From: Ascidiella aspersa
Taxonomy: Eukaryota
Direction: 5' to 3'
Length of the DNA: 64,000 nucleotides
NCBI GenBank assembly: GCA_963924565.1
Contig: OZ004613.1
Coordinates: forward strand, 11,594,001 to 11,658,000
Position numbers and translations under genes: made by a program. Every line of letters begins with the position of its first letter. Position 1 is the first letter of the stretch. Positions 61,101 to 64,000 of this stretch are shown here, piece after piece. The notes beneath the pieces are model-generated. The model saw only the letters and a program-made list of their open reading frames with translations. It was not told the origin of the DNA and searched no databases.

Positions 61101-64000
61101 CAGTTCGTGCTTTTCAGCAGGGTTAGTTAAAATTTCTGTTATAATTTCAGTTAAACTTAAAAAATTGGGTTTATCTAAAATAAATTAGATGTCAGATCAT
61201 AGCAGAACTGTGGAGTGTGACTCAGGGGGCTCAAGTAAGACTAAGAAAACTACCCGATGTGTGCGCACTGCGCATGTGCAGTACCAAATTTTGAAACTGA
61301 TAAGACAATGTAAATTTTTAAGGTGAAATCGCGTATGGTTGCACATTTTTCATAAGCCTTACCAAGAGATTGCTGAACATCCATCTTTTTAATTACGAAA
61401 TCGCACATTTTATTTGGCATGCGAGTTGTTGATATTTTGACATTATTTATAAAAACTAGCACACTACATATGAAAAATTAACCACTCGCACACTACATAT
61501 GAAAAACCAACCACTCGCCTACTAACACTAAGAGTGCTATCCTATTGCCCTAAATAAAAGTATGTTTACAGTTAAAAGAGTAAACTTTAACATTTAACAA
61601 AACGCGCTTTAGCTGTTTTTTTAGATGGTCAATGACTTGATGACTGGACTTGTGCACTTAACTGTTTTTAAATGACTTAACATGACTTAAGTCATTTGAA
61701 CTAAGCATTTTTTTAAATTGCATTATTTATCTCAAGTTTTGCCTTAAAACGATTTGCTGGCTTCATGTTGCACTTTGTGCTATTTTTTGCGGAGTTGTTG
61801 CTCACATATTAATCGGAAAAGTTGCCAATTTTTTAAATTTAATGTTTAATTTTGTGACAAGGACTTGACTCCCTTTAATTATAAAATAACTGGGACTTAA
61901 GTCGTTTCAAAATGACTTGATATCAACATTGATTAATTAAAGTGGACATGAATATAGGTTAAAGACTATTGTTTCATATAAGAGGATATTGTGTAGAAAA
62001 AAATATTTTATCATATGTGTTATATTGGGATGGTGATGTCACTTCATCATTACAAGATAAAGTTTAAAAATATATGCCAAGGGTAAAAACAGCACAAAAT
62101 TGTCAGTTACATCACAGAATTCTTATCCCGAAATTTACTTCCTTTTTTCAGGTGTGACTATGTACCATGCATTAATGTTGCTCTATCTGAGTATGAAAAA
62201 TGGGTGAGTAACGACACTGGAGTAAACCCTGACGATCTGCCAGCTATATTTGGTGCAGGTACTCAATAGAAAACAATAAATTTAATTATAATTTTCCAAA
62301 GTGTTGTGCATGAGCCAAAAATCAGTGTGTAAAGTGACACTATTAATAAATGTAAAACCTGTTTCGGCTTCAATAGATGTCATGAGAATTATGGAAAATT
62401 ATTTTACTTGCAAATATATAAAAGTTGCCAAACTCAAAAAGATAGTTCTTTTGGATATTTACTATTTGCAACAACTCCAAAATATAATAAAATATAAAAC
62501 AGAAGCACATGGAACATTTGAGGATGTTTTTTTCACGGGCCATTTTTTGTACTTTTATTTGTACCTTGCTTAAAAATAACTAGGATTGGCATTTATTTAT
62601 TGGTATAAGGCTCAAATATAACTAGTTTGGACACTTTTTTGTTTGTATGTCGTTTGTATAAAACTAATTCTGTCACTTTTTTAATCACACATACCTTTAA
62701 AGCTTAGTATGTGTATTCACAACAGAATCTTGCCCTCCAACAGAACACATAATGCCTTAAATAAAAAATAGCAAAAAAAAAAGCTTGAGAAGCGCACCGC
62801 TCTGAACAAAAATCAGTCAGCAAAGGTCAATTTTTTACTATTTATTTGTACAGACAAACTGATGATGCCATTTATATGGCGAAATGCATATTTGTATTAA
62901 AATTTTTAGACCTTTGCCGACTGATTTTTGTTCGGAGCGGTGCGCTTCTCAAGCTTTAACATAACTTGAAATGAACTAAATTGGGTAACTTTTTGGTGGT
63001 ACATTACTCAAACCAAGCCAGGATTTTTTTCAAATTCAGCTTAAAAAAACTGTTGTGGGCACTTTTTTGTTTCTATTAATAAACTATAGCCAGAGTAAAA
63101 TAGTGAAATAGATCCAACAAGCTGGTCATACATTTGACAATATGACAGCTTAAATTAATTTTATTCTTCGATTTTAAAAACAGCTGTTACACATGGATCC
63201 ATAACCAACTGGGACTATCTGTGGAGTTTCTTTGTAAATTCAACTGATGCCAATCTTAAGCGCAAAATTTTGGCTGCACTTACCTCTACTGTTGATGTTG
63301 AAAAGATATTGTTTTTGCAAAGTCAAGTCCTAAAGGCAGAAACAATCAGACCTCAGGTGGGATGGTCTAAAATGTCTTATAAATCTGAATGAATTTATGT
63401 TAGACTTCCAATCCCAATAGCAACGTTTAACAAGAACCATCAATAACAAGTTTTTAAATCAGCAAGAATTATTAAAAAAATGTTCTTATATAACTTTTTT
63501 AATTTTAAAAATATATATCATCATAAATGATTTGGAAATTTTTAGCTAACTTAAAAAAACTGAAGTGTTTATAACTTATAAGTACTACAACCATTTTTTT
63601 TGCAAAAATAGTTTGATATTGCCTTTTTGCACTTTGTCTTATCAACAATAATGCAGACAAAATTAGACTCACAAAAAATGTCAAATGTTTGCACTGATGA
63701 GATGACCTGTTTTCTTTTATTCGGTTGGTTTGAATACTTCTTGTATGGTCAGCCTCGATATGGACTGACCACTGCTCAACCATACTATTAAAATTTAATA
63801 CATTCTCTTGTATTGTCAATCAAGTGCAAAACCTCAACCCATCATAATAAGTTTAAAGCAAAAATGACGGAATTAATCATTGGCAAATATGTGTTTTGTT
63901 AAAATAATTTAAGTGAAAAAAATTCAGGATTCTTCCACGGCCATCGGTGGGCTTTCCGGAAACCTGGTTGGGGCTTCGTTGACATGGAAGTTTGTGAGGC
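49174..64000 (+). CDS. M1 zinc aminopeptidase, type II membrane protein (LNPEP/IRAP-ERAP-like); 3' end lies beyond the window
   Basis: Exons 49174-49313, 51482-51633, 51891-51987, 52252-52687, 53608-53808, 54307-54457, 55665-55844, 55917-56111, 56455-56612, 58607-58678, 58816-59025, 59771-60006, 60327-60472, 62152-62258, 63184-63356 and 63928 to beyond 64000. Motifs: [59 protein letters not shown] and FDDISYSKG. Confidence 0.95.
55021..55166. repeat. Tandem duplication of about 74 bp in an intron
   Basis: Two near-identical copies of taagac(at)gttccctttatgacacattgttaaatat..gcatagctctaaataaa. Confidence 0.85.
57745..58215 (+). mobile_element. Two copies of a tRNA-derived SINE (about 57745-57860, 5'-truncated; about 58075-58215)
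   Basis: A-box-like tagctcagttagtagagc (58082-58099) and B-box-like gagttcaaacc / gatttgaacc. The two copies share the body tatggc.agaggt..tgcag.ctagtt..tagcctac. There is no closed cloverleaf. Confidence 0.65.
59150..59583. mobile_element. Degenerate foldback element with G/T-rich telomere-like interior
   Basis: Ends cagtacagaataa / ttattctgcactg, inner inverted pair gaataagccctaaat / atttagggcttattc, and gggttag-like units. Confidence 0.55.
62780..62957 (+). mobile_element. Foldback element (49-bp inverted arms) enclosing a hammerhead; Penelope pseudo-LTR-like
   Basis: aaagcttgagaagcgcaccgctctgaacaaaaatcagtcagcaaaggtc (62780-62828) pairs with its reverse complement at 62909-62957 with 2 mismatches. 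Confidence 0.8.
62854..62895 (+). ncRNA. Intact minimal type I hammerhead ribozyme
   Basis: acaaa CTGATGA T GCCAT ttat ATGGC GAA ATGCAT A tttgt. Stem I is acaaa/tttgt, stem II has 5 bp and stem III is the palindrome AUGCAU. The predicted cleavage site is after A62890 (AUA triplet). Confidence 0.85.

Follow-up and report, generated by a model that had tools for sequence, protein, structure and literature searches.

Results

The locus

The window analysed here, a 64,000-nt stretch of the Ascidiella aspersa genome, carries towards its end a hammerhead ribozyme motif inside an M1-type aminopeptidase gene. The host intron, 62259-63183, has the consensus GT..AG ends, and six reads of RNA run X10 join them, with the host transcribed on the + strand; the exon downstream matches ERAP1_C at E 6e-5, below the Pfam cut-off. 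The sense-oriented location in an aminopeptidase intron given in the initial annotation is therefore upheld, the domain match being sub-threshold. The motif is part of a 258-bp head-to-head stub of a young, multi-copy Penelope-like element (PLE) family, laid out as follows.

62259..63183, + strand: host intron of the M1-type aminopeptidase gene (six spliced RNA reads; ERAP1_C match in the next exon)
62689..62701, + strand: probable target-site duplication, left copy, decayed (11/13 identical to 62959-62971)
62700..62957, no strand assigned: whole insertion, the 258-bp head-to-head Penelope-like stub (alignment to one natural parent tandem unit; sister copies have the same layout)
62700..62828, − strand: inverted arm, about +47 to +181 from hammerhead C3, ending before the ribozyme
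62700-62757, − strand: tail of the inverted arm, which is the start of the PLE ORF
62780-62828, − strand: pLTR end of the inverted arm, with a decayed A-rich spacer between it and the tail
62829..62957, + strand: forward arm with the hammerhead, pLTR positions −30 to +95
62829..62853, + strand: pyrimidine tract plus CAG (62851-62853), unspliced form; putative spliced-leader (SL) trans-splice acceptor
62854..62895, + strand: minimal type I hammerhead with palindromic stem III (sequence, descriptor of PMC4209133)
62854-62858 / 62891-62895, + strand: stem I, 5 bp
62859-62865, + strand: core CUGAUGA
62866, + strand: extra U
62867-62871 / 62876-62880, + strand: stem II, 5 bp, with G10.1-C11.1
62881-62884, + strand: GAAA
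62884-62889, + strand: palindrome AUGCAU (stem III)
62890, + strand: H17, an A, with the cut predicted after A62890
62909..62957, + strand: right arm of the foldback, ordinary pLTR sequence
62959..62971, + strand: right copy of the probable target-site duplication

In the numbering generally used for hammerheads, the core is complete, with C3-A9, G12-A15.1 and U16.1-H17 all intact, and the motif has an extra base between 9 and 10.1, the G10.1-C11.1 pair and a palindromic helix III. Across 60 Markov-simulated 64-kb windows, a strict descriptor found 0 sites and a loose one found 2, so that the complete hammerhead first reported at this locus is real. A comparison with Rfam, which had been proposed as a check, returned no hammerhead match at E ≤ 10 and only miRNA matches driven by the hairpin. 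The 49-bp foldback around the motif is equally real, its arms (62780-62828 and 62909-62957) being complementary at 47 of 49 positions, with one G-U and one A-C mismatch, and its folding z = −17. The element had, however, been drawn as coextensive with this foldback, at 62780-62957, whereas the unit is longer and takes in the inverted tail, from 62700 on.

The forward arm differs by two substitutions from the majority of family copies. For the candidate 13-bp target-site duplication, 9 of 2000 random positions score equally; the sister hairpins L002 and L003 have duplications of 13-14 bp. Runs X1 and X2 yield contigs that extend 26-30 letters over the insertion junctions, and because this is below the bar of 31 letters, presence of the insertion in a second individual is only suggested. 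Elsewhere in the window, an intronless frame of 674 codons (43389-45413, + strand) encodes RRM- and KH-like repeats; by eye, we take it to resemble IGF2BP/Vg1RBP.

The parent element and its family

Searching the same genome with a 178-bp query, with the best 40 of 474 candidates scored, gave 88 matches, and the exact hammerhead pattern occurs 110 times compared to 0 in the control; the hammerhead is multi-copy. Sister loci extend upstream into a GIY-YIG frame. The parent element forms tandem units with a period of 3,422 bp, and its 816-aa frame matches GIY-YIG above the cut-off (E 7e-6) and RVT_1 below it (E 3e-5), contains the motifs DKDG and FIDD and a CX2CxxC linker, and has a break in each unit inspected. 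By its sequence features, the parent is a C-terminal EN+ PLE. The linker agrees with the CX2-5CxxC motif of the Neptune and Nematis clades, to one of which the family may belong. The parent hammerhead lies in the pLTR, and the family shows tandem units forming pLTRs, a tail and an inverted truncated copy. At C2:30.63 Mb (L045, L046), four near-identical 3,422-bp units with a common frame break stand in tandem, together with an inverted copy.

Among the first 100 of 167 arm matches, 23 neighbouring pairs are arranged head to head and none tail to tail. We surveyed 80 of the 83 family regions for short head-to-head inserts, called by an adjacency rule that did not catch L105. Besides the one in the window, there are 24 such inserts, with a hammerhead in both arms (11), in one arm, which is the layout of the window (8), or in neither (5); the tail is on exactly one side in 22 of the 25 inserts, the window included, and on both sides in none. 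Such head-to-head junctions are usual in the family, and the foldback is one of them, a standard inverted PLE junction that the initial reading overlooked. Two other classes of element were considered and rejected. Against a MITE or DNA transposon, each copy has junctions of its own, and the arms consist of internal pLTR sequence without terminal repeats fixed for the family; as to a non-LTR retrozyme, the only tandem found is the 3,422-bp coding unit, and no short ORF-less head-to-tail monomers were seen.

Predicted fold and conservation of the ribozyme core

Stems I and II are perfect on paper, as had been stated, but stem I is absent from the ensemble predicted by ViennaRNA. Its probability is 0.05 for 62850-62900 alone and 0.00-0.003 once 62829-62849 are included (at 37 and 20 C), with a median of 0.0027 across 42 unspliced family copies. 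The predicted competing fold pairs 62845-62849 with the 5' strand of stem I, while the 3' strand of this stem folds on GAAA. The model behind these figures has no 2-nt stem III loop, tertiary contacts or help from protein, and under it the hammerhead of the stub is predicted to be misfolded and inactive in the intron. The suggestion that the foldback stabilises the ribozyme fold was dropped, given that the loss of stem I is the same with the foldback present or absent. That the motif is a Penelope-type minimal type I hammerhead requiring a dimer is borne out, because in a monomer stem III would need a loop of 2 nt.

Within the family, the core is not conserved above its flanks: 9 of 861 core cells are substituted (1.05%) compared to 90 of 5,104 flank cells (1.76%; p = 0.15), in contrast to the genome-wide excess of core conservation that the initial reading called for. 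This comparison covers 100 of 107 aligned arms, with five duplicate loci and the two arms of the window left out, as were the search-anchor columns and one subfamily column. An intact core is found in 58 of the 68 full copies, with 55.9 expected. Such parity of core and flanks is what neutral decay of dead copies produces, and an intact core is accordingly the default for young copies. Judged by eye among the listed matches of several families, the core is kept while stems I and II vary. Copies starting within 3 nt of the cut site number 3 of 107, which is no excess, and cleaved RNA was rejected as a template on the lack of a pile of copy 5' ends there. A host-adopted intronic hammerhead is not supported either, considering that the core is not conserved beyond its flanks and that no stable monomer fold is predicted.

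Expression of the host gene around the stub

RNA evidence at the locus amounts to 146 reads, from about 6% of one run (X10, assigned by species label), with a depth of 6-13 over exons and of 0-2 reads over the intron flanks. The sole listed pile of read starts or ends is at 62821, and most of the reads over the hammerhead motif stem from other genomic copies. At an intron depth of 0-2 reads, these data show no pile of read ends at the predicted cut site, 62890/62891, and no splice joint into the stub, including 62854, reached the 3-read bar, compared to six canonical reads. Cleavage of the host pre-mRNA, as originally envisaged, thus finds no support on this thin coverage, with splicing normal. 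The same applies to ADAR editing of the foldback: the A>G rows are also present in DNA or come from other copies, and sense intron reads are few. At this low intron coverage, cleavage or splicing to the acceptor at a low rate could escape detection, but the hammerhead of the stub probably does not act on the host gene.

A putative spliced-leader acceptor in front of the ribozyme

Directly abutting stem I is a putative splice acceptor that the initial annotation overlooked. Among the 71 hammerhead arms of the 3,422-bp PLE family, 62 have a pyrimidine tract with CAG at this place, 8 have a leader and 1 has another sequence. In the 8 leader arms, a 16-nt leader replaces the upstream sequence and is joined exactly at the equivalent of 62854; six carry a local type of leader (three with one mismatch, two of these being a duplicate pair) and two carry a leader of the Ciona type. 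In several family copies the element sequence stops exactly at the AG that precedes stem I and the same short string stands there; this leader joint recurs in contigs of runs X1 and X2. From the genomic copies alone, CAG 62851-62853 is likely to be the SL trans-splice acceptor of the element's own RNA.

The pattern extends to other families. In a third one, represented by 30 of its 62 copies, the acceptor is found in 15, the local leader in 11, an exact and a near Ciona-type leader in one each, and another sequence in 2; five of the 30 adjoin pieces of a PLE ORF. Genome-wide, a leader followed by 2-7 nt and a hammerhead core occurs at 284 junctions distributed over several families, with 0 in the control. 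Another organism has such junctions as well: metagenome contigs contain at least 121 loci with at least 123 junctions of a Ciona-type leader with CTGANGA, at least 106 of them with GAAA; these come from at least five assemblies, which are perhaps not independent, and 4 of the at least 121 loci resemble loci of the genome studied here.

Other hammerhead families are represented in the window itself. One occurs unspliced at 250 (227-250, − strand) and with a leader at 14973 (14952-14996, + strand), in inverted layouts. Farther on comes a broken PLE ORF (20795-22122), 45-49% identical to the parent; behind it, near 22425 (about 22400-22460), a fourth family has its acceptor and a hammerhead that has decayed. 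The families with the acceptor form at 250 and near 22425 have the leader form elsewhere in the genome.

A leader is not always followed by a ribozyme: no strict hammerhead stands behind it at 14 of 30 dispersed local-leader loci and at 27 of 30 Ciona-type loci. In one leader-bearing family (L134, L223, L226 and L230), GUAA replaces GAAA in 4/4 and stem I has 7 bp, possibly a natural variant of the core. Leader-first repeats without a hammerhead fall into one group with L144, L151, L212, L214, L225, L228, L229, L231 and L232, and further groups with L133, L140, L203, L211 and L215 and with L131, L157 and L166. These at least three families may be other trans-spliced retroelements, for example PLEs that have no hammerhead.

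Acquisition of the leader changes the predicted fold in some cases. In the ViennaRNA prediction, two leader-bearing copies of the 3,422-bp PLE family have a stem I probability of 0.05 and 0.17, up from about 0.003. In the third family, duplex energies are the same with leader or acceptor; judged by eye, four families have a base opposite the third-last A of the leader that favours the leader, and three have one that favours the acceptor. A general rule that the leader switches the ribozyme on was rejected for these two reasons, and we retain it only as a family-specific idea.

The leaders and their gene arrays

The local leader string has 2,860 genomic matches compared to 2 in the control, and 2,305 of these are followed by GT. 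Most of the first 100 matches listed are in a tandem array of 429-bp units on C7, in which the donor, GTAAGC, is accompanied by a small hairpin and by a tract rich in U. Of the 16 letters of this leader, 14 are those of the Ciona SL (PMC1488885 Table 1). The Ciona-type leader, identical to the Ciona SL, has 673 matches compared to 2 in the control and an array of 584-bp units on C3 with a GTAAGT donor. Both leaders join the same base in the 3,422-bp PLE family. The Sm-like tract in the arrays was judged by eye, and no Rfam families were found on them. The genome thus holds two SL RNA gene arrays, on C7 from about 14.77 Mb (L171, L172) and on C3 at about 5.2-5.3 Mb (L233). A few bases past the donor, other insertions break into the arrays.

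Discussion

The reading that we favour, with a probability of roughly 0.85, is that the insertion is a 258-bp PLE stub with a hammerhead predicted to be misfolded and likely inert for the host, and that the CAG in front of the ribozyme is likely an SL trans-splice site of the element's RNA. The stub, the ribozyme and the layout are already known; the putative SL acceptor at a PLE hammerhead is new here. A search by titles and abstracts, with subscription journals largely outside its coverage, found no published report of SL trans-splicing at PLE hammerheads.

Minimal hammerheads in metazoan PLE pLTRs, inactive as monomers and weak as dimers, were described by Cervera and De la Pena 2014 (PMC4209133). 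The hammerhead studied here is like them in its type I form, its short helix I, the additional base that separates A9 from G10.1, the G10.1-C11.1 pair and the palindromic helix III, and in its occurrence mostly in single truncated copies; it differs in that helix II has 3-5 bp and that processed copies have become part of the genome. Drosophila virilis Penelope has an intron whose 3' boundary is the 5' end of helix I (PMC4209133), whereas here the helix I splice site would receive a trans-spliced leader and not an upstream exon. Tails and inverted truncated copies have been described for PLEs (PMC8557442; PMC3846280). With C-terminal EN+ PLEs that have a linker of Neptune/Nematis type (Craig et al. 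2021, PMC8557442; Adineta Pen2, PMC3846280), the parent shares RT plus GIY-YIG, partial tandems, the inverted 5'-truncated copy, the one-sided tail and a probable target duplication, although the tail is about 80 nt here and 30-40 there. In vitro, the Anolis Poseidon element PAc (Frangieh et al. 2024, PMC11167929) likewise has two internal RT start sites that define the tail, cutting and extension of both strands, and uncut RNA as the main template. However, its vertebrate host has no SL, its hammerhead, which cleaved only with its protein, overlaps the ORF start, and the one here lies about 130 nt upstream of the ORF.

As to the leaders, Ciona SL trans-splicing (PMC1488885) also involves a 16-nt leader, repeated SL genes and unpaired AG acceptors, but Ciona is reported with one major SL, compared to the two arrays found here. 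Six SL exons merged to transposable elements were reported in Schistosoma (PMC5832876); these cases are small in number, show no tie to PLEs or ribozymes in the available text, and may be assembly chimeras.

These observations can be assembled into a tentative model of retrotransposition. The PLE would be transcribed from its pLTR, and in part of its RNA the SL would replace the 5' outron at the AG abutting stem I. The RT would have two internal start sites on the RNA, one at about +96 to +101, the other at about +177 to +183, and prime on both nicked target strands, so that two cDNAs would be joined head to head; for the stub in the window, one cDNA would have extended from +181 down to about +47, the other from +95 down to −30. 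Because the latter cDNA runs through the uncut ribozyme and the acceptor, the template of the forward arm would have been both unspliced and uncleaved. Once in the host intron, the acceptor would have the host donor as its partner but would lose out to the normal 3' splice site.

Leader arms occur within head-to-head inserts (L079, L105, L120 and L122), and at C1:20201204/20201301 and C1:28072532/28072593 both arms carry a leader. Since the leader is added to sense RNA only, leader-bearing arms had a sense template. Head-to-head palindromes of PLEs have been argued to need an antisense template, a point left open in that work (PMC3846280); contrary to this proposal, a sense, leader-capped, uncut RNA likely serves as the template of PLE copies, the head-to-head ones included, as judged from the genomic sequence.

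Several other explanations deserve consideration. The intronic hammerhead could have been retained for cutting or regulating the aminopeptidase pre-mRNA, either as a dimer with the transcript of another copy or with the aid of a PLE protein. Its intact core and sense orientation are compatible with this, as are its 5-bp stem II, better than that of the full-length units in which one base is missing, and the fact that no empty-site joint is listed in runs X1, X2 and X9. Nevertheless, we regard such retention as very improbable: the proportion of sister copies with an intact core is close to the chance expectation, stem I is sequestered in the predicted fold, both mismatches of the foldback arms are uncompensated, splicing is normal with no pile-up of read ends, and minimal PLE hammerheads show no monomer and only weak dimer activity (PMC4209133). 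Another potential effect on the host is that of a cryptic splice acceptor, used in cis from the host donor to 62854 or in a truncating trans-splice. A frame check shows that the cis joint would add 330 nt and reach a stop after about 15 codons, the acceptor is sense-oriented and located in an open loop, and cis-splicing is preferred at paired acceptors (PMC1488885). That this is the main effect of the stub nevertheless appears quite unlikely in view of the six canonical reads against no joint to 62854 at the 3-read bar, of the mere 25 nt of outron that remain, and of the strong stem that closes immediately upstream.

The leader-hammerhead junctions themselves might have a different origin, through template jumps of the RT onto abundant SL RNA or SL-capped mRNAs, or through insertion into SL genes. 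PLE RTs do capture foreign sequence (PMC3846280), and some of the junctions have partial or doubled leaders. However, the joint falls exactly at the donor boundary of the leader and the AG of the element, in four families and with two leaders, and two shared letters alone would be available to guide a jump. The upstream flank of the arrays is found at 0 of the 30 dispersed loci, which argues against targeting of SL genes. We therefore hold this origin to be unlikely and retain trans-splicing of the element RNA as the preferred reading.

Beyond this locus, it appears probable that tunicate PLEs set an SL acceptor 2-5 nt before the hammerhead core and that the leader stubs, hundreds in number, are a fossil record of a sense, processed but uncut template, for head-to-head copies as well; PLEs would then have a conserved splice site at helix I, used in cis in Drosophila and in trans here, through which RNA processing is coupled to the fold of the ribozyme.

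The locus itself is ordinary mobile DNA. The questions that it touches, namely the template strand of the PLE RT, the origin of head-to-head copies and the role of the hammerhead, are open ones in the available literature (PMC3846280, PMC8557442, PMC11167929). [quoted passage not shown] Under the reading favoured here, these elements would be retroelements that exploit the trans-splicing of their host for their cap.
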